Below the pieces are notes generated by a model that made no database searches, was not told the origin of the DNA, and saw only the letters and a program-made list of their open reading frames with translations. From an uncultured Methanosarcinales archaeon (GTDB lineage: Archaea; Nanobdellota; Nanobdellia; Woesearchaeales; UBA9642), in NCBI GenBank assembly GCA_964545585.1, contig CAZJFT010000002.1:1-56623 (forward strand): DNA of 56,623 bases, written 5' to 3'. Numbering within the stretch: position 1 is the first letter of the stretch; each line of letters starts with the position of its first letter. The position numbers and the translations under genes were made by a program. Shown here piece by piece: positions 13,997-31,254 of the stretch.

Positions 13997-13998
13997 TA

Positions 13999-14089
13999 TG
14001 CGATAGCCGGGATTCGAACCCGGGTCTCAAGCTCTTTCCATTCTTATAGAATGTGGGAAGCTCGAATTCTGCCGCTATACTACTATCGC
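13999..14089 (-). tRNA. tRNA-Gly(CCC) with an intron of about 20 nt at 37/38
   Basis: Acceptor stem GCGATAG/CTATCGC, T arm CCGGG-TTCGAAT-CCCGG, and anticodon stem CGAGC/GCTTG enclosing TTCCCA + intron + A. Confidence 0.85.
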
Positions 14090-14142
14090 ATAATATTTGA
14101 AAATTGATTAATTTTATATATTTGTTGGATTAGGTTGATAGT

Positions 14143-20849: not shown

Positions 20850-20924
20850 TGCTCCCTCCGGGATTTGAACCCGGGTCACAGCCGTGAGAGGGCTGTATGA
20901 TTGGCCGGACTACACTAAAGGAGC
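20850..20924 (-). tRNA. tRNA-Glu(CTC)
   Basis: Cloverleaf: acceptor GCTCCTT/AGGGAGC, anticodon arm CAGCC-CTCTCAC-GGCTG, T arm CCGGG-TTCAAAT-CCCGG. Confidence 0.88.
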
Positions 20925-20967: not shown

Positions 20968-21900
20968 TTATTCTTTGTCTGCTGTGAATCGGAATTTTTC
21001 TTTATCATCTTCAATATCATTTTTTTTTGTTTTCTCCGCATAATCGTTCCCATACATCAATCCTAAGACGTACTCTGCCAACCCTTTGGCTTCACTCCTG
21101 TATGGCTCAGGTATTCTGTCTACTATGAATCCTGCGTCTTGGAATCGTCCATGTCCTGCATTATATGATATTATAAGTCTATATTGCTGTGTTTTTCTTG
21201 TTGCTTTCTTATAGTACGGATCATTTGCTTTATGGAATCTATCTAAGAACTGGAGGTGTGAAATCCCGGCGAATGAGTTGTTATGAGGAACATATGCAAG
21301 GGCATCTCTTTTTGAGTAAGGGAGATTAGCAAATTGCGGGAAATAATCATCGAATGTACTCTGCAATGTCTGATATAAGCTCTTTGCGCCTGTCGGACTT
21401 GTTGCCATGTGATCATATGCTGATTCTCCTTTCGGCAAAGATATGGCTAATTCTAATGTTACTGGGCCTGTAGGTTTCAATCCTTGGTACTGTGTGTGCA
21501 TTATTGGGAACATTTTATGGAATCTTTTTTTAAGCGTCTTTGTCGGTGTCAGCTTATTGTAAAGACGTGGCCCTGTCAATTCTATTATCTCATCTATTGT
21601 GTAATCTCTTATATCCATTATAGGTGTGGTTATTTTTGGTCCAGTATACACGTTTTCCAAATTGCCAGAAATAGTATTGCGTTCTATAGGTGAGAATAAT
21701 CCGCTGAAATAATCATCAATAGACTTTGCTGTTTCATCAAAGAATTTTGTAATGTCAAATCCATCTTTTTTTCCTTTTATGTCTTTTGCGTATGAATTAT
21801 TGGGTTTTCCGATGAATGAATTCACTATCATCCAAGTCGTGAATGTACTCAGAACTACATCTTTGACTATACTTTTATTATCTATTTTCTTTTTAGCCAT
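20968..21900 (-). CDS. Lytic transglycosylase (SLT/GH23)-like secreted protein, paralog 1
   Basis: GESAYDHMATSPTGAKSLYQT (the E-S...S..GA..L.Q motif) and SYNAGHG. N-terminal hydrophobic segment followed by NSFIGKPNNSY. Confidence 0.7.
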   Translation of the reverse strand: MAKKKIDNKSIVKDVVLSTFTTWMIVNSFIGKPNNSYAKDIKGKKDGFDITKFFDETAKSIDDYFSGLFSPIERNTISGNLENVYTGPKITTPIMDIRDYTIDEIIELTGPRLYNKLTPTKTLKKRFHKMFPIMHTQYQGLKPTGPVTLELAISLPKGESAYDHMATSPTGAKSLYQTLQSTFDDYFPQFANLPYSKRDALAYVPHNNSFAGISHLQFLDRFHKANDPYYKKATRKTQQYRLIISYNAGHGRFQDAGFIVDRIPEPYRSEAKGLAEYVLGLMYGNDYAEKTKKNDIEDDKEKFRFTADKE

Positions 21901-22041
21901 ATAAACCCCTAAAATTCACTATTACTTAGGAACTACGTTTTTTTTATAAACGTTTCGGATTTATTCTAGCATTAAACTATCACAAAATATTTCTTATCAA
22001 TAAGTAGTAAAATATATAAAATACTCTTTTTTCCTGACAGC

Positions 22042-22539
22042 ATGAAAGAATTATCCGATACGGTAATCAAACAATATGGGAATATAAAGCTATATAGCGA
22101 TAGGATAGAAATCGAAAATAAATCAACAACTATCACAAAAACAGAATCCCAGATAATGTTAACACTCATGAATTCTCCAGAAGAGGCCGTTTCTAGAGAA
22201 GAACTATATAGCAAAGCCTGGCCTGGAATCATAGTCTTGGATAATACCGTAAACGTCCACATATCAAGACTGAAAAAGAAATTAGGCGAATACGGGCATA
22301 TAATAAAATCTGCATCTAAGAGAGGATATCTCTTAACTCTCAATCCTCAAAAAATAATTTTATCTCCGATAGAGCAGAAAATTATTGACTATATGAAAAG
22401 CGTTCCAGAAACACCTACACAGAAAATGATAAAAAAAGAGATGGAGAAGTTCGGATATTCCAGAGATACAACACATGTAATGTTACATCATCTTAAGAAT
22501 AAAATCAATGGGAAAAATATCAATGAACATATTGCATAA
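22042..22539 (+). CDS. Receiver-less OmpR/PhoB-type winged-helix DNA-binding protein with an extra C-terminal HTH-like segment
   Basis: ITKTESQIMLTLMNSPEEAVSREELYSKAW...TVNVHISRLKKKL...KRGYLL matches the trans_reg_C pattern. Confidence 0.7.
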   Translation: MKELSDTVIKQYGNIKLYSDRIEIENKSTTITKTESQIMLTLMNSPEEAVSREELYSKAWPGIIVLDNTVNVHISRLKKKLGEYGHIIKSASKRGYLLTLNPQKIILSPIEQKIIDYMKSVPETPTQKMIKKEMEKFGYSRDTTHVMLHHLKNKINGKNINEHIA

Positions 22540-22544
22540 TAAAA

Positions 22545-23057
22545 TCACAACATCTTCCCAAGAATGAACACGTCCTCATATTTTCCATCATCAAGAAATA
22601 GCCCTTGCTCTCTTCTGCCCTCTATCTTGAACCCTAGCTTCTCAGCAACCCGGAGCGATGCAGCATTGTTCACTGAAGCCTCAGCATCGAGCCTCTTCAG
22701 TTTATTCTTCTTCGCTTCCTTGATCAATGCTTCGACCAGCATCGTAGCTATGCCTTTATTCATATAGCCCTGCCTAACGAACCATCCGCATTCTGCACGA
22801 TGCTGCATCTTCGAGAACTTATGACGCGTATATATGCTTAACCCCACCACCTTTTTTCCATATAACGCAAGCAATGTAGCGCCATTCTTCAAAGAGAGTT
22901 TCTTGTCTATAAGTTCAGGATTCGCTATCAGGAAGAATTTGTTATTGCACGCATAACGATTTACACATTCCTTGCAATTATTATCGCAAGATTCGTTCAT
23001 GCATTCCATTATTGCCTTTCCATCACCAGGAATAGCTTTTCTTATCGAAATATTCAT
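22545..23057 (-). CDS. GNAT-family N-acetyltransferase
   Basis: VRQGYMNKGIATMLVEALIKEAK (the Q/RxxGxG/A motif) and NNAASLRVAEKLGFKIEG. Confidence 0.85.
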   Translation of the reverse strand: MNISIRKAIPGDGKAIMECMNESCDNNCKECVNRYACNNKFFLIANPELIDKKLSLKNGATLLALYGKKVVGLSIYTRHKFSKMQHRAECGWFVRQGYMNKGIATMLVEALIKEAKKNKLKRLDAEASVNNAASLRVAEKLGFKIEGRREQGLFLDDGKYEDVFILGKML

Positions 23058-23093
23058 GTAGAAAATTAATATAGGTGCAGGTAATATTTATAC

Positions 23094-23792
23094 TTAACGA
23101 TTATATTCAGGGATTTCTAAACGCACTATGTTGTTCTGATGCTGGTATGCGTCATATATCCTCATGTCCTCTAAAAGTGTCCTGTTTCTCATTCTACTAA
23201 CATAATCTCTCGTCTCTTTAGGCATCTCATCTATGTTCCATCCTGCTCTCATCAATCTGCCCTGCCCACCATTATATGCTGCATTCATCAGGTCTTGTTT
23301 ATGTTCTATGGGCAATTGGTCGAATCCAGGATAATTCTGCCTCAAGAAAATATCGACCTTATTTATATGATGAAGACTTGCCTTCCCATTCAGCAATGGA
23401 TCATAAGCATTATCGAAATGCGCATTCATGACGTCATTCCATGAGGGCGCCATAATCTGCCATAATCCTCTTGCACCGACTGGACTTGTCGCATTAGGAT
23501 TATCGCCGCTCTCTACATAGCTTCTTGCCATCTGCACAGACATAGGGATGTAATCAGGGACTTTTATATCTGAATATACTTTCTCGATAACATCCATCAA
23601 TTCAGAATAGTCCATGGCTTTAGGCGATTTCTTCTCGATAAATACCGATGCCTTGGGCTTGAATGCGTCTTCGGAGAATATATCTCCATATAAGAATCTT
23701 GAATCATATGATTTGTTCGGACTGCCAGCTAATGAATTCGCCACTAATATGACTAATGCACTGTCCTTCATTAGATTCATCAGCCTTTTCAT
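23094..23792 (-). CDS. Lytic transglycosylase (SLT/GH23)-like secreted protein, paralog 2
   Basis: YVESGDNPNATSPVGARGLWQIM and AAYNGGQGRL. N-terminal hydrophobic segment followed by NSLAGSPNKSY. Confidence 0.8.
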   Translation of the reverse strand: MKRLMNLMKDSALVILVANSLAGSPNKSYDSRFLYGDIFSEDAFKPKASVFIEKKSPKAMDYSELMDVIEKVYSDIKVPDYIPMSVQMARSYVESGDNPNATSPVGARGLWQIMAPSWNDVMNAHFDNAYDPLLNGKASLHHINKVDIFLRQNYPGFDQLPIEHKQDLMNAAYNGGQGRLMRAGWNIDEMPKETRDYVSRMRNRTLLEDMRIYDAYQHQNNIVRLEIPEYNR

Positions 23793-24096
23793 CTCTAATT
23801 AATCCTATATATGACACCATAGTAATTCCACTATATGGATGTCTCTTCATATCATCGTATGAATTCTTTTTCGTGTTGTCTTGTTTGTTTGCTAGTTGCA
23901 ATCCCACCACTATCGCATAGTTTTTCTACTATTGACAGCATATCGCTGTCATGACGCGAAATCGTATGATAATCACCTAGATGCTTATTGGAAAAATAAG
24001 TCATTTATAAAATTTATGAATCCATAAACATATCTGGTATAAAAAGTATATTTTATAAATGATGGACGCAATGAATAATTAAATGCCATCATAATA

Positions 24097-24158: not shown

Positions 24159-27068
24159 ATGGATAGGCGAGAGATAAGAAAAAACGTGTACTCAGTCGGC
24201 GCAATAGATTGGGACAGGAGATATTTCGATGAGATAATATATCTTCCTGATGGCACAAGCTATAATTCTTACCTTATAATAGGAAGCGAAAAGACTGCAC
24301 TGATAGATACCGTCGACCCTACAAAGTCAGATTTGCTCGTCGAGAATCTTGCGGGCATACAAAAGATAGATTACATAATATCCAATCATGCCGAGCAGGA
24401 TCATTCAGGAAGCATACCTTTGATGCTTGAAATGTATCCTATGGCAAAAGTGGTATGCAATGATCTTGACAAGAAGATGCTTATGGATGAGCATGTAATA
24501 GATGAATCCAGATTCATTGTAATCAAGGATTATGAGACCCTTAGCTTAGGCGACAAGACATTACAGTTCATCTTCACCCCATGGGTCCATTGGCCTGAGA
24601 CGATGTGCACATATCTCATTGAGGACAAGATACTGTTCACATGCGATTTCTTCGGAAGCCATTTAGCGACTAGTGAGATGTATGCTGACATGCAATCAAT
24701 ATATCTGCCTGCCAAGAGGTATTATTCTGAGATAATGATGCCATTTGCGAGCATAATAGTAAAAAATCTTGAAAAAGTTAAGAAGCTTGATTTAGATGTC
24801 ATAGCGCCGAGCCATGGTCCAATGTATACTGATCCGAGATATCCTATAGGATTATATGATGATTGGACATCAAAAAATGTGAAGCCTAAGGCCGTAATAA
24901 TATATGTTTCAATGCATGGAAGCACAAGGAAGATGGTGCAATACTTGACCGCGCAACTGATGCGCAAAGGCATGATTGTCGAGGAATATAATGCTTTTGA
25001 TGCTGATGCGGGGAAGATAGCGATGGATCTTATCGACGCATCCACATTGATTGTTGCAAGCCCATCATTTCTTGGGGGATTGCATCCGAAGATAGCATCA
25101 ATAGTGTATCTTGCGAACTCATTGCATCCTAAGACAAGGATATTGGCATACATGGGCTCTTACGAGTGGGGCAGCAGTGTCATTGAACAAATAAAACAGA
25201 TGACGAGCAATTTCAATGCCCAAATGATAGACCCATTCCAGGTCAAGGGATTGATGAAACAGGACAAATATGGAATGATGGATGCATTCGCAGATTCTAT
25301 AATACAAAAAAATCTTGACCAAGGGATACTCAAAAAAGATGTCCATCATGAATCAATCCCCTATATCAAAGATGTGAAGATAGTCTTATGTGGAGAAGCA
25401 GGACAAGGAATTGATTCCATATCCGACTTCTTGACCAAATTGTTCAAAGATGAAGGATATAATATTTTTGCTACAAAAGAATACATGTCAAGAGTCCGCG
25501 GAGGAGAAAATTCTACAACTATACGGATAAGCTCGAGGCCTGTAGAAGGATACAGTGACAGCATAGACATCCTCATCCCATTGGACAAGGGAGCCATCGG
25601 GCACTTATCGAATAGGATATCAGAAAATACCATAATCATAGGAGACAAGTCGACAATCAATGATGTCCAGAAGAGTAAGTACAGGTTCTTTGACGTCCCG
25701 ATAATAGATATCGCATCGAGGACTGGTGCAAAGATATTCGCTAATACTGTGGCTGCAGGCGTAATCCTTGGGATGTTCAATGCAGATATAGAAAGATTCA
25801 ATGTGCTCTTAAGGAATAAATTTTCTGACAAACCACAGGATGTTATTGAAAAGAATATCACTGCAGCAAAAAGAGGATATGATGAGGGCCGAAGGATAAT
25901 CAGTGAGCATAAAGAACTGCTTGAAATGACACGAATAGACAAGGATCCTTCAGTCCATGACCAGATGCTGATGTATGGCGCTGAAAGCATCGGTCTTGGA
26001 GCGATCGCTGGCGGATGCAATTTCATCTCTGCATACCCTATGTCTCCATCGACAGGAGTATTGTCATATCTAGCATCTAAGAAAGATGATTTTGGCATAA
26101 TAGTAGAACAGGCAGAAGATGAGATATCAGCAATAAACATGGCCATCGGCGCATGGTATGCTGGCGCAAGGGCTATCGCTAACAGTTCAGGCGGAGGATT
26201 CGCACTCATGACAGAGGGGGTCAGTCTTGCAGGGATGATAGAGAGCCCATTAGTGATACACATTGCGCAAAGACCGGGTCCTGCTACAGGACTTCCCACC
26301 AGAACAGCTCAAGAGGATCTGGAATTAGCATTATATGCAGGGCATGGAGAATTCTGCAGGATAATATACGCTCCAGGGAATGCATTGCAAGGGTTTTATT
26401 TGACTCAAAAAGCATTCAATATGGCAGCAAAATATCAGATTCCGGTATTTGTATTGACCGACCAATACTTCATGGACACATTGCATAACGTTGCACCGAT
26501 TGATGTAAACGGGATAGTCGTCGAGGAACATATAATTGAGACTCCTGAAGTGTATCAAAGATATAAGATGACTGACAATGGGATAACACCAAGAGGAATT
26601 CCGGGATACGGGAAAGGATTTGTATGTGTAGATAGCGATGAGCATGATGAATCAGGCCATATAACAGAGAGCATGGATGTCAGGAATATCATGATGGAAA
26701 AGAGACATAAGCGATATGATGCATTAGTTGAAGAATCATTGATGCCTTCCATGTTTGGAGGAGAAAATTATTCCATCCTCATAATCAGTTGGGGCACCAC
26801 ATTTGGAAGCGTCAAGGAGGCTGTGCAGAAGATTGACAGGAACGATATCATGTATATGCATTTCTCCCAAGTCTATCCTTTACATCCGAAGACTGCTTCA
26901 TGGATTAGGAAAGCGAGAAAGACTATTGTCGTAGAGAACAATTCTACAGGACAATTCTCTAAACTTATAAGGAGAGAGACAGGGTTGGATACTTATAAGA
27001 TACTGAAAGATGATGGGATGCCTTTCAGTGTCGAAGAATTGATGGGAAAGATATTGAAAATGGCATGA
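24159..27068 (+). CDS. Fusion protein: flavodiiron protein (metallo-beta-lactamase + flavodoxin domains) joined to the 2-oxoacid:ferredoxin oxidoreductase gamma-alpha (KorA-type) subunit
   Basis: Residues 1-395 carry NHAEQDH, WVHW, CDFFGSH, APSHG and IIYVSMHGSTRKM. Residues 405-969 carry KIVLCGEAGQG, RVRGGE, SAYPMSPSTG and GGGFALMTEG. Single uninterrupted frame. Confidence 0.85.
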   Translation: MDRREIRKNVYSVGAIDWDRRYFDEIIYLPDGTSYNSYLIIGSEKTALIDTVDPTKSDLLVENLAGIQKIDYIISNHAEQDHSGSIPLMLEMYPMAKVVCNDLDKKMLMDEHVIDESRFIVIKDYETLSLGDKTLQFIFTPWVHWPETMCTYLIEDKILFTCDFFGSHLATSEMYADMQSIYLPAKRYYSEIMMPFASIIVKNLEKVKKLDLDVIAPSHGPMYTDPRYPIGLYDDWTSKNVKPKAVIIYVSMHGSTRKMVQYLTAQLMRKGMIVEEYNAFDADAGKIAMDLIDASTLIVASPSFLGGLHPKIASIVYLANSLHPKTRILAYMGSYEWGSSVIEQIKQMTSNFNAQMIDPFQVKGLMKQDKYGMMDAFADSIIQKNLDQGILKKDVHHESIPYIKDVKIVLCGEAGQGIDSISDFLTKLFKDEGYNIFATKEYMSRVRGGENSTTIRISSRPVEGYSDSIDILIPLDKGAIGHLSNRISENTIIIGDKSTINDVQKSKYRFFDVPIIDIASRTGAKIFANTVAAGVILGMFNADIERFNVLLRNKFSDKPQDVIEKNITAAKRGYDEGRRIISEHKELLEMTRIDKDPSVHDQMLMYGAESIGLGAIAGGCNFISAYPMSPSTGVLSYLASKKDDFGIIVEQAEDEISAINMAIGAWYAGARAIANSSGGGFALMTEGVSLAGMIESPLVIHIAQRPGPATGLPTRTAQEDLELALYAGHGEFCRIIYAPGNALQGFYLTQKAFNMAAKYQIPVFVLTDQYFMDTLHNVAPIDVNGIVVEEHIIETPEVYQRYKMTDNGITPRGIPGYGKGFVCVDSDEHDESGHITESMDVRNIMMEKRHKRYDALVEESLMPSMFGGENYSILIISWGTTFGSVKEAVQKIDRNDIMYMHFSQVYPLHPKTASWIRKARKTIVVENNSTGQFSKLIRRETGLDTYKILKDDGMPFSVEELMGKILKMA

Positions 27069-27090
27069 TGAGGAGTGTTGAACAGATAAA

Positions 27091-28632
27091 ATGACATTTG
27101 AGATCGATCATAAGGATATAGCATGGTGTCCTGGATGCGGGAATTTCAGCATCATCGCGATAGTTAAGAAAGCATTGGAAGAGCTGGCGCTTGACCCGAA
27201 GAATGTTGTTCTAGTCTCAGGCATCGGGCAGGCAGCGAAGCTTCCACAGTACTTGAATACTAATTATTTCAATGGATTGCATGGGAGGGCGCTCCCCCCA
27301 GCGACTGCTATAAAAGTAGCCAACCCGAACCTTCAAGTCATAGTCACTAGCGGTGACGGTGATATGTATGGTGAAGGTGGGAATCATTTCATACATGCTA
27401 TAAGAAGAAATCCTAACATCACAGTCATTGTGCATAATAATATGGTGTATGGTCTGACGAAAGGACAGGCAAGCCCGACGAGCCAGAAAGGCATGAAGAC
27501 CCCTGTGCAGATATCTGGAGTATTCCTTGAGCCATTCAATCCTATTGCCGTGGCTGTAGCGCTTGATGCATCATTCGTCGCCAGGACTACAGTGAATGAC
27601 TTGGAGCATGCAAAAGATATAGTGAAGAAAGCAATATTGCATAAAGGATTTGCTTTGGTGGACATATTCCAGCCTTGCGTCACATTCAATAAAATAAATA
27701 CATATGACTGGTACAAGGAGCATTCTTATTATCTTGAGAATGAATTCGATCCTCATAATAAGGGATGGGCATTCGCTAAGGCAATAGAGACTGAGAAGAT
27801 GCCGTTAGGGATAATATATCTCAATGAGAAGCCAGTGTTTGATGAAATGATAGGCACTTATGATAATGATAAGAATCCGTTGTTCAAGAGGAAACTTGAC
27901 AGGGAGAAATTGAAATCATTAATCGGCAAGAAGAACATTTTTGCTGTAAGAGTCATCAGCATAAATAAAGAGACTCATGATGTTTTCACGATAACTACAG
28001 AGAAGCCATTCTCATTCATCCCAGGCCAGTATGTTATGATAGGTAATGGAAAGAATATAAACAAGAAGGATTCCATACCTATAACTATAGCCAGTTCTCC
28101 TGAAGAGAGCGTATTAAGATTCACCATAAAAGATTTAGGAGGATACAGCAGGGAACTCATCAATTCCAAGCCCGGGGACATATTCACTATAAGCAGGCCT
28201 GTCGGCGAATCATACAATTTTGATGTAGCAAAAAATTATGTCATGCTATCTGGAGGCTCAGGCGTAACACCATTCCTAAGCATACTTCGGCACGTCAAAG
28301 ACACAGGTTTGAAGAATAATATAATAGTGATAAACAGCAACTGCTCATACAATGACATAATATGCAGGGAGGAGCTTGATGCATTAAGCAAGGACAATAT
28401 CTATATAATGAATGCACTTGACAGATATGATGATGAGTGGAAAGGGGAGAGAGGATACATCAATAAGGACATGATACTTCGTTACGTCAATAAGGATAGG
28501 CTTAATGAGTATACATGGATGCTGTGCGGACCTCCAGGAATGGTTAATTCTCTAGAGAAGACATTGAAGGAACTCGGAGTGAAGGATATAAGGAGAGATA
28601 ATTGGGAGATAGCAGCGAAGTGCGAGAGATGA
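27091..28632 (+). CDS. Fusion protein: OFOR beta (KorB-type TPP/[4Fe-4S]) subunit joined to a ferredoxin-NADP-reductase-like FAD/NAD(P)-binding module
   Basis: Residues 1-280 carry [31 protein letters not shown] and FQPCVTFN. Residues 285-513 carry [18 protein letters not shown] and LCGPPGM. Confidence 0.85.
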
Positions 28633-31135: not shown

Positions 31136-31254
31136 TGTGGGTGGCGAGATTTGAACTCGCGACTTCCACGTTACCCAATTCATTGCCCATTGCTGGACTC
31201 ATCGCTCAAAGCGTTTATGAGCGTGGCAATCTAACCAGGCTGAGTTACACCCAC
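31136..31254 (-). tRNA. tRNA with a CAT anticodon (elongator Met or Ile2) and an intron of about 44 nt at 37/38
   Basis: Acceptor GTGGGTG/CACCCAC, anticodon stem CCACG/CGTGG enclosing CTCATA + intron + A, T arm GCGAG-TTCAAAT-CTCGC. Confidence 0.8.

Follow-up and report, generated by a model that had tools for sequence, protein, structure and literature searches.

Here we describe a four-gene locus that encodes two small proteins of the SLT (GH23) lytic transglycosylase type, SLT1 and SLT2, in a 56,623-nucleotide stretch of archaeal DNA (contig CAZJFT010000002.1; the whole stretch is hereafter called the window). On balance, we favor the interpretation that SLT1 and SLT2 are exported and cleave bacterial peptidoglycan, and we regard it as probable rather than assured. 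The locus comprises (i) SLT2 (23094..23792, minus strand; 232 amino acids (aa)), of the GH23 family-1 type; (ii) a gene for a GNAT N-acetyltransferase (22545..23057, minus strand; 170 aa); (iii) a gene for a winged helix-turn-helix (wHTH) regulator (22042..22539, plus strand; 165 aa); and (iv) SLT1 (20968..21900, minus strand; 310 aa). It is flanked on the SLT1 side by a tRNA-Glu(CTC) gene (20850..20924) and on the SLT2 side by fusion genes of the flavodiiron protein and 2-oxoacid:ferredoxin oxidoreductase type (FDP-OFOR; 24159..28632). An earlier note on this DNA had described four open reading frames (ORFs) with these coordinates and strands, between these two flanks and in an archaeal setting, and our analysis recovered all of them. 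The archaeal source of the window is a sound assignment, as the window encodes a P0-type L10 protein with an RL10P insert, a DUF7121 protein, and a glutamyl-tRNA synthetase that scores above the gltX_arch cut-off; two over-long tRNA genes, read as intron-containing, point the same way. Moreover, its gene order matches that of contigs from metagenome-assembled genomes (MAGs) named Candidatus Woesearchaeota, and a Woesearchaeota-type DPANN lineage is its best placement. The related loci and contigs that we compared with the window are labeled L001-L018 and L099-L101.

As judged from its sequence and predicted fold, SLT2 is a canonical family-1 lytic transglycosylase, because (i) the motifs of that family are invariant, (ii) its catalytic Glu aligns with that of Slt70, (iii) its modeled fold matches such enzymes, and (iv) no second carboxylate is conserved. 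Both proteins score above the gathering cut-off of the Pfam SLT family (PF01464; 21.3 bits), SLT2 with 45.1 bits (E=8.5e-12) and SLT1 with 36.5 bits (E=4e-9), so the SLT/GH23 signature that had been read in both ORFs by eye is borne out by significant profile matches. Across 23 aligned family members, the motifs E-S, S-x-x-G-A-x-x-L-x-Q, and Y-N-x-G are fixed, as is a C-terminal Tyr; the invariant residues, in SLT2 numbering, are E94, S95, S103, G106, A107, L110, Q112, N135, Y173, N174, G176, and Y197. The codon for Glu94 is GAG (23513..23511), and a profile of the SLT2 clade puts this residue on residue 478 of Escherichia coli Slt70 (1QSA), which we take to be the catalytic Glu of that enzyme. 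Together with the presence of E-S in 23 of 23 sequences, this alignment supports the catalytic Glu originally proposed. Further, the Ser at Glu+9 fits MltE, whose mutant entries 6ghy and 6gi3 imply an E64/S73 spacing, and the 23-member alignment, in which position 97 varies, has no conserved second carboxylate like that of lysozymes or chitinases. The AlphaFold (AF2) model of SLT2 has a core predicted local distance difference test (pLDDT) score of 85-96 over residues ~60-210 and adopts a lysozyme-like, all-alpha fold. A Foldseek search with this model returned exclusively MltC, MltE, Slt, Cj0843, MltF, the phi6 lysin, and g-type lysozymes, the best match being MltC (4cfo; E=2e-4, query TM-score (TMq) 0.49), and SLT2 is ~16-21% identical to the solved structures. 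In its C-terminal tail (23094..23140, residues ~217-232), which lies outside the SLT fold and is modeled with low confidence, the pattern NN(I/V)V-R(L/M)(E/D)(I/V)P-x-Y-N-R is kept in orthologs down to ~57% identity.

SLT1 is a divergent homolog of SLT2 that occurs in two forms. BLASTP aligned SLT1 with SLT2 at 25% identity over 143 aa (E=4e-14), and a profile-profile comparison with hhalign gave a probability of 98.6%, which upholds their initial description as a paralogous pair. However, a recent duplication does not stand: in the wider family, no clear sister relationship joins SLT1 to SLT2, so the duplication is an old one. The SLT1 protein consists of a signal-like N-terminus (residues 1-31), a region of ~85 aa in which no homolog or fold was recognized, and the SLT domain. 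The codon of its catalytic Glu159 is GAA (21426..21424); this residue is invariant in eight of eight orthologs, as are G-E-S and Y-N-x-G-x-G, with the more divergent type B included. Types A and B occupy the same slot and are only ~40% identical to each other. Type A is found in the window and in L001 (72% identity within the type), and type B in L011, L012/13, and L007 (~79% identity within the type). The first ~40 residues, as well as the promoter, stay conserved between the two types. The AF2 model of SLT1 was poor (pLDDT 45) and unusable for a fold search. Neither the peptide patterns of SLT1 nor its promoter sequence gave a match in metagenome scans.

Two sets of proteins were considered as diverged SLT1 and rejected. 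In L003 and L005 (L003:11755-12993 and L005:3559-4821), a protein of 412-420 aa without a Pfam match fills the SLT1 slot after the GNAT gene and is followed by an N6_N4 DNA methyltransferase. The 412-420-aa proteins of L003-L005 are unrelated to SLT1, and together with the methyltransferase those of L003 and L005 may represent an integrated element that replaced it. The 306-aa protein of L006 is like a pentameric ligand-gated ion channel (pLGIC): in two Woesearchaeota MAGs, proteins of ~306 aa encoded close to the SLT2 locus (L006:12238-13158 and L009:8724-9650) show weak matches to Neur_chan_LBD and Neur_chan_memb, the two halves of such channels.

Both SLT proteins begin with a putative export-type N-terminus, which in SLT2 spans residues 1-23 (nucleotides (nt) 23792..23724) and which comprises a basic n-region, a Lys-Asp (K-D) pair, a moderately hydrophobic run of 12-14 residues, and a Gly, the run ending in S-L-A-G-(S/T/A)-P. 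The 19-residue Kyte-Doolittle means (KD19) of the hydrophobic run are ~1.1-1.5 in all members, below the usual level of a transmembrane helix. By this hydropathy heuristic, the export-type N-termini noted at the outset are predicted in both proteins. The earlier note had also pointed to a shared N-terminal module, NS(F/L)xG(K/S)PN(N/K)SY, as one to check for sorting signals. The motif is real in both window paralogs, but outside the window and its near relatives the PN(N/K)SY part is not conserved: orthologs in general keep only the basic n-region, K-D, the short hydrophobic run, and Gly. Signal-like N-termini are found in nearly all of the 150 nearest representatives of the wider family, with a hydrophobic run that ends in a small residue followed by Pro. 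We infer that the motif is no new sorting module: it would be the closing part (c-region) of a Sec-type signal peptide, or part of an uncleaved signal anchor, of a kind shared by the wider family at large. A relic lipobox (L-A-G-C changed to L-A-G-S) was not supported, as a lipobox-like Cys occurs in only 14 of 182 wider-family sequences. A class III (pilin-type) signal was likewise rejected: some SLT2 orthologs carry K-D-G followed by a hydrophobic run, but the Gly is not conserved (Ser in window SLT2, Val in SLT1).

All related loci that we examined carry SLT2, and in all of them it is syntenic. It lies beside the FDP-OFOR operon with the GNAT gene downstream in L001/2, L003-5, L007, L009, L011, L012-14, L015/16, L099, and L100/101 (SLT2 47-81% identical), and in L006 it adjoins the OFOR operon without the GNAT gene. 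Chromosomal synteny of the SLT2-GNAT pair is thus conserved across at least 10 related lineages, named Woesearchaeota MAGs included, and genes for a P-type ATPase, a lipase-like protein, L1/P0, PAP2, and VIT1 are shared among the flanks. The tRNA-Glu gene behind SLT1 also recurs in L007 and L011. The GC content at third codon positions (GC3) of SLT2 (0.43) and of the GNAT gene (0.48) is ordinary in comparison with that of 17 other genes (0.43-0.53). Because of this normal composition and of synteny conserved down to 47% identity, the locus is best read as vertically inherited and not as a recent transfer islet, and the term islet used for it earlier is therefore withdrawn.

The two halves of the module differ in their stability. 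SLT1 and the wHTH gene have GC3 values of 0.32 and 0.33, as against 0.43-0.53 in all 19 other measured genes. Between the window and its relatives, identity is 80-95% for the OFOR subunits, 90-92% for the P-type ATPase, 82-91% for the GNAT, and 71-81% for SLT2; the wHTH orthologs are 27-40% identical and often lost. SLT2 and the GNAT gene are hence the stable half of the module, and SLT1 and the wHTH gene its variable, fast-diverging half. The full SLT2-GNAT-wHTH-SLT1 order is found in three of the eight SLT1-carrying lineages (the window, L007, and L099).

The labels of some relatives are at odds with this picture. L004 (MEWA01000037.1) is labeled candidate division WWE3 bacterium RIFOXYC1_FULL_39_7, and an identical SLT2 is found on the 58-kb contig L003, which shares its FDP-OFOR, HAD, SLT2, and GNAT neighbors with the window and L011. 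L007 and L010 are third-party annotation (TPA) MAGs labeled uncultured Methanosarcinales archaeon, and the entire module and the promoter of the window are also found in L007. L004, L007, and L010 are probably mis-binned or mislabeled DPANN contigs.

The GNAT gene starts 36 nt downstream of SLT2 in the same orientation, and the SLT2-GNAT spacer measures 15-54 nt in L001, L003, L007, L009, L011, L012, L015, L099, and L100. The encoded protein has an Acetyltransf_1 domain (Pfam, E=4e-14) and, as its best match in the Protein Data Bank, an uncharacterized GNAT (2i79); it has no signal peptide, would be cytoplasmic, and is probably co-transcribed with SLT2. Its residues ~18-37 (22950..23005), ahead of the acetyltransferase fold, carry the Cys-rich pattern C-x4-C-x3-C-x2-C-x5-C, which may be a metal-binding insertion. 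An AmpG-like muropeptide permease beside SLT2 was considered and rejected, as the major facilitator superfamily (MFS) neighbors in L006 and L009 match Tet/drug-efflux models best and showed no AmpG match; at the window locus itself there is no MFS gene.

The wHTH gene is convergent with the GNAT gene, their stop codons being 5 nt apart, and divergent from SLT1. Its product matches Trans_reg_C over residues 27-98 (E=3e-17), followed by a small second helical segment toward the C-terminus, and Pfam returned no Response_reg (receiver) match. Because Trans_reg_C alone is present, the protein is an orphan wHTH of the OmpR/PhoB type and not a response regulator; the first reading of the two middle genes as a receiver-less regulator and an acetyltransferase is thus sustained. 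L099 and L007 have homologs (40% and 27% identity, respectively) that match it in slot and orientation, and the linkage of regulator and GNAT to the SLT genes, which had been singled out for the window, is recurrent. The wHTH gene is absent from L001, L011, L012/13, and L100; as it is present in three of the eight SLT1-bearing lineages, it is ancestral, with repeated losses. A word-indexed protein search found no homolog and missed the regulators of L007 and L099. These same-slot regulators were obtained by a Pfam scan of the L007 ORFs and the L099 gene calls, so an insertion or orphan gene confined to the window was rejected. The regulator resembles orphan OmpR/PhoB wHTHs of the ToxR/CadC-like and SARP-like kinds in its full Trans_reg_C domain and in being divergent from its likely target, which is the classic layout of a local regulator. 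Unlike those regulators, it has neither a transmembrane segment nor a BTAD domain, only the short second helical segment; it is also from an archaeon and has evolved very fast (27-40% identity), and several lineages do without it.

Both divergent promoters in the 141-nt spacer between the wHTH gene and SLT1 are conserved in the window, L007, and L099. The putative promoter of the wHTH gene contains a TATA-like element, AGTAGTAAAATATATAAAA (22003..22020, plus strand), 22-39 nt upstream of the ATG, and the block TTTTATATATTTTACTACT (in minus-strand reading) is invariant in these three loci. The SLT1 promoter and leader (21901..21959, minus strand) read TCCGAAACGTTTATAAAAAAAACGTAGTTCCTAAGTAATAGTGAATTTTAGGGGTTTAT and then ATG, which we interpret as a B recognition element (BRE)/TATA box and, behind it, a leader that contains a GGGG ribosome-binding-like run. 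Its pattern, TCCGAAACGTTTATAAAAAAA...TTCCTA...ATAGTGAAT..TTAGGGG, is nearly invariant in the window, L001, L007, L011, L012, and L099, even where SLT1 is only ~40% identical, and an exact 17-mer of this promoter occurs once in the window. A sigma-70 and terminator scan was uninformative for an archaeon.

Directly upstream of SLT2 (23793..23840, minus strand), direct repeats of ~24 nt, CATATAGTGGAATTACTATGGTGT and CATATATAGGATTAATTAGAG, precede the gene together with a TATA-like box ~24 nt before the ATG, and a promoter function would suit this region. The repeat (TCATATAGTGGATT...) is present in two copies in the window and in three copies each in L001 and L003. Its ATAGTG(G)AATT core recurs in the conserved SLT1 leader; as an operator shared by SLT1 and SLT2, however, this core is a lead only, because one exact match has no significance by itself (21 of 100 shuffles also give one). 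Farther upstream, between the OFOR operon and SLT2, lies a conserved non-coding block (23835..24011, minus strand) with its own TTTATAAAT box (24003..24011), followed by ~150 nt of near-invariant sequence. This block reads CATCTGGTGATTTTCATACGATTTCGCGTC...GCGATAGTGGTGGGATTGCAACTAGCAAAC...TCATACGATGA, is more conserved than the SLT2 coding sequence in six aligned loci, and consists of sub-blocks that are unique within the window. A search for structured RNA in it gave no Rfam match, no covariation, and a weak fold, and an overlapping 50-aa ORF is not conserved in the six-locus alignment. Two readings of the block are left, a small RNA and a long leader of SLT2.

An exhaustive profile search placed SLT1 and SLT2 in a wider family of 1,826 cluster representatives at E<=1e-3, with 333 at E<=1e-10, the 150 nearest of which are mostly 170-280 aa long. 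The few members with a name or a readable context are archaeal, namely a protein named Nanoarchaeota archaeon, L017 (with an archaeal threonyl-tRNA synthetase editing domain), and L018 (with a non-discriminating, archaeal-type aspartyl-tRNA synthetase). Phage and viral SLT proteins reach at most 39% identity, over the catalytic core only. No bacterial donor was identified by cluster look-ups or by a GTDB scan, which gave only four archaeal-labeled genomes. The bacterial origin assumed in the earlier note is accordingly not shown, the nearest members with readable context being on archaeal-type contigs, and it stands as a reasonable conjecture from the overall distribution of the domain. The distant member P0020 lies on the 257-kb archaeal contig L017 (L017:9585-11669), in a context unlike that of the window, where it is surrounded by tightly packed small ORFs (137, 123, 100, and 104 aa) without Pfam matches.

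In the mechanism that we propose, each enzyme would carry an N-terminal Sec-type signal, either cleaved or kept as an anchor, and would thereby be brought to the medium or the surface of the cell, where it would cut the β-1,4 bond between N-acetylmuramic acid (MurNAc) and N-acetylglucosamine (GlcNAc) in bacterial peptidoglycan by Glu-catalyzed intramolecular transglycosylation, as in Slt70, MltC, and MltE. SLT2 would be the constant, constitutive enzyme, probably made from one transcript with the cytoplasmic GNAT, and SLT1 the fast-evolving paralog, with its extra N-terminal region of ~85 aa and its own strongly conserved promoter. The receiver-less wHTH, divergent from SLT1 in some lineages including that of the window, probably controls SLT1. 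The role of the enzymes may lie in opening or gripping the walls of bacterial partners or prey, or in freeing pieces of wall from the debris of bacteria. Lytic transglycosylases depend for their reaction on the C6 hydroxyl of MurNAc, which is missing from the talosaminuronic acid of pseudomurein; because of this, pseudomurein is disfavored as a substrate, although the argument weighs against it and does no more. Bacterial murein, named as the target from the outset, is the most plausible substrate, and DPANN precedents have been published (PMC8204110, PMC9723730).

These precedents also bear out the earlier remark that murein hydrolase genes have been seen in DPANN genomes before. Giant extracellular SLT proteins of up to ~3,000 aa (fam00969) were described in Woesearchaeota/Pacearchaeota by Castelle et al. 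2021 (PMC8204110), who cite Rinke 2013 and Castelle 2015 for such SLT genes, and a GH23 "large lytic murein transglycosylase" was described in Woesearchaeota by Vigneron et al. 2022 (PMC9723730). The SLT/GH23 proteins of Woesearchaeota/Pacearchaeota have repeatedly been interpreted as tools to attach to or degrade bacterial walls (PMC8204110, PMC9723730, PMC10936187). SLT1 and SLT2 are like the fam00969 giants in their phylum-level host group, their catalytic domain, and the proposed binding or degradation of bacterial walls in episymbiosis or predation. Unlike the giants, as these are described, they are 232 and 310 aa long, consist essentially of a putative signal and an SLT domain, and belong to a module in fixed synteny. 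AR20, from the 2015 work of Castelle and colleagues, is reportedly among the giant SLT-type proteins.

A second precedent is the work of Strock et al. 2025 (PMC12352652), in which archaeal peptidoglycan hydrolases were found to kill bacteria, as shown in haloarchaea with M23 peptidases as the tested examples. The survey in that study required a catalytic domain plus a wall-binding domain, found the genes to be patchy and biased to plasmids and small contigs, and reported Nanoarchaeota to be rich in peptidoglycan hydrolase genes, with more than one per genome in some cases (PMC12352652). SLT1 and SLT2 are like these hydrolases in being archaeal and, as we propose, secreted and aimed at bacterial peptidoglycan; they differ in being GH23 proteins without a wall-binding domain, and SLT2 differs further in being chromosomal, syntenic, and always present. 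The resemblance to family-1 bacterial lytic transglycosylases (Slt70, MltC, MltE/EmtA; CAZy GH23) extends to the fold (as modeled for SLT2), E-S, S-x-x-G-A-x-G-L-x-Q, A-Y-N-x-G, and the C-terminal Tyr, and like MltE the window proteins are small and single-domain, with a putative N-terminal targeting signal. Unlike the bacterial enzymes, they occur in an archaeon expected to have no murein, and most members of their clade have no lipobox Cys. They also differ from VirB1, FlgJ-type, and phage endolysins in that no secretion, pilus, flagellar, or phage genes lie in the window or in the syntenic loci. The concept of such enzymes in DPANN archaea is therefore already published; as far as our searches show, the small-protein form, the SLT2-GNAT-(wHTH)-SLT1 module, and the dimorphism of SLT1 are undescribed in the literature searched.

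Several points weigh against the proposal that SLT1 and SLT2 are exported to cleave bacterial peptidoglycan. With regard to export, the signal-peptide call is a hydropathy heuristic, and many members have a Pro just behind the hydrophobic run, which is unusual beside a signal-peptidase site. With regard to the substrate, SLT is the sole Pfam domain in either protein, no peptidoglycan-binding or cell-wall-binding domain (LysM, PG_binding, SH3, etc.) was found in SLT1 or SLT2 at E<=1 with Pfam and NCBIfam, and GH23 folds bind chitin oligomers too, as seen in the MltE-chitopentaose (4hjy) and phi6 lysin-chitotetraose (4dqj) structures among our Foldseek matches. As for catalysis, the near-invariant Gly of G-L-x-Q is replaced by Ser in window SLT1, the groove motif of type B SLT1 is degenerate (S-Y-S-D-V-I-G-L-A-Q for S-P-x-G-A-x-G-L), and type B orthologs score marginally against Pfam SLT (21.4, 22.0, and 17.0 bits); some SLT1 proteins may thus be weak or inactive enzymes. 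Moreover, the housekeeping-like strict synteny of SLT2 differs from the patchy occurrence of archaeal peptidoglycan hydrolase weapons (PMC12352652), and our view is limited to 56 kb of the genome, so that murein-synthesis genes may lie elsewhere. Finally, no bacterial partner is known, and muralytic activity is a prediction from sequence. To our knowledge, no host has been established for any Woesearchaeota.

Four other explanations were considered. The substrate might be a glycan other than murein, such as chitin-like β-1,4-GlcNAc polymers, an archaeal host's glycocalyx or N-glycans, or an exopolysaccharide, used for attachment or feeding. The chitin-bound structures and the missing peptidoglycan-binding domain are consistent with this, as are the many glycan-metabolism genes in the window (glycogen synthase, GH57, and a glycogen-debranching enzyme (GDE)) and the archaeal nature of the known DPANN hosts (PMC8204110). 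However, the full motif set of family-1 lytic transglycosylases is invariant, the second carboxylate of g-type lysozymes and GH23 chitinases is not conserved, and the closest structural neighbors are all murein enzymes; we consider a non-murein substrate unlikely. In an explanation that we hold to be similarly unlikely, one or both proteins, and especially SLT1, would mainly bind glycan strands to dock on a partner cell, with catalysis weak or lost, and SLT1 variation would reflect partner specificity. The dimorphism of SLT1 behind an invariant promoter and signal peptide would suit such an adhesin or sensor, as would the degenerate groove motif and marginal scores of type B, the Gly-to-Ser change of window SLT1, and the extra N-terminal region without a recognized fold; "attachment" was also suggested by Castelle et al. 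(PMC8204110). What speaks for retained catalysis is the presence of G-E-S and Y-N-x-G-x-G in all eight SLT1 orthologs, including type B, and SLT2 is fully canonical.

Remodeling of the archaeon's own wall appears improbable. Here, the archaeon or its clade would make a murein-like glycan, and SLT1 and SLT2 would be housekeeping autolysins for growth and division, like bacterial Slt/Mlt enzymes. SLT2 does resemble a housekeeping gene: it is never missing, it lies on the chromosome in synteny with genes of central metabolism, and its composition is normal; its product is small and membrane-proximal like bacterial Mlt proteins. However, archaea are not known to make murein, and there are no Mur ligase, MraY, MurG, or penicillin-binding protein (PBP) genes within the 56-kb window; in the literature searched, there is no report of murein synthesis by Woesearchaeota, the sole mention of "peptidoglycan biosynthesis" referring to co-occurring bacteria (PMC9723730). 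The slightest chance of all goes to a mobile-element, viral, or contaminant origin, in which the genes would encode a provirus or plasmid endolysin or a VirB1-like transglycosylase, or lie on a mis-assembled bacterial fragment. In its favor, phage endolysins often contain SLT domains, the locus has a tRNA gene next to it, GC3 is lower in SLT1 and the wHTH gene, and one homolog was deposited under the name of a candidate phyla radiation (CPR) bacterium. Yet the same gene order with archaeal housekeeping flanks recurs in more than 10 independent assemblies, the window contains no phage, conjugation, or pilus genes, and the viral matches are confined to the core at <=39% identity. Further, the tRNA-Glu gene is a conserved neighbor in L007 and L011, and the "WWE3" SLT2 is also found on the 58-kb contig with the neighbors of the window and L011.

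The proposed cleavage of bacterial peptidoglycan admits of a bolder extension, which is possible but doubtful. In it, the module would be a regulated host-interaction system of a Woesearchaeota clade that lives on bacteria and not on archaea, with SLT2 as the constant wall-opener, a dimorphic, wHTH-switched SLT1 as the host-range determinant, and a GNAT that processes imported amino sugars or D-amino-acid peptides from the wall. If true, it would provide a genetic handle on cross-domain episymbiosis between an archaeon and a bacterium. The division into a stable and a variable half suggests where any partner specificity would be seated, and enzymes of 232 and 310 aa, being easy to express, lend themselves far better to zymograms, muropeptide analysis, and tests of substrate range than the giant SLT proteins do. 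In addition, small single-domain proteins fall outside the design of the 2025 survey, which implies that such surveys undercount this class. The gain is incremental, as it fits the published idea of archaea that attach to or feed on bacteria and introduces no new principle.

Beyond the locus, two further features of the window deserve mention. The flanking FDP-OFOR genes encode unusual fusions: the first (969 aa) joins a flavodiiron-type ODP/metallo-beta-lactamase and a flavodoxin-like domain to the gamma and alpha domains of 2-oxoacid:ferredoxin oxidoreductase, and the next (513 aa) combines an FAD/NAD(P)-binding reductase with the beta subunit of OFOR. Both fusions are kept across the clade, with orthologs in L001, L003, L006, L011, and L012. 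The window also contains two over-long tRNA genes, 13998..14090 (93 nt) and 31136..31254 (119 nt), which we read as intron-containing; the latter was overlooked by ARAGORN and recovered as an Rfam match.

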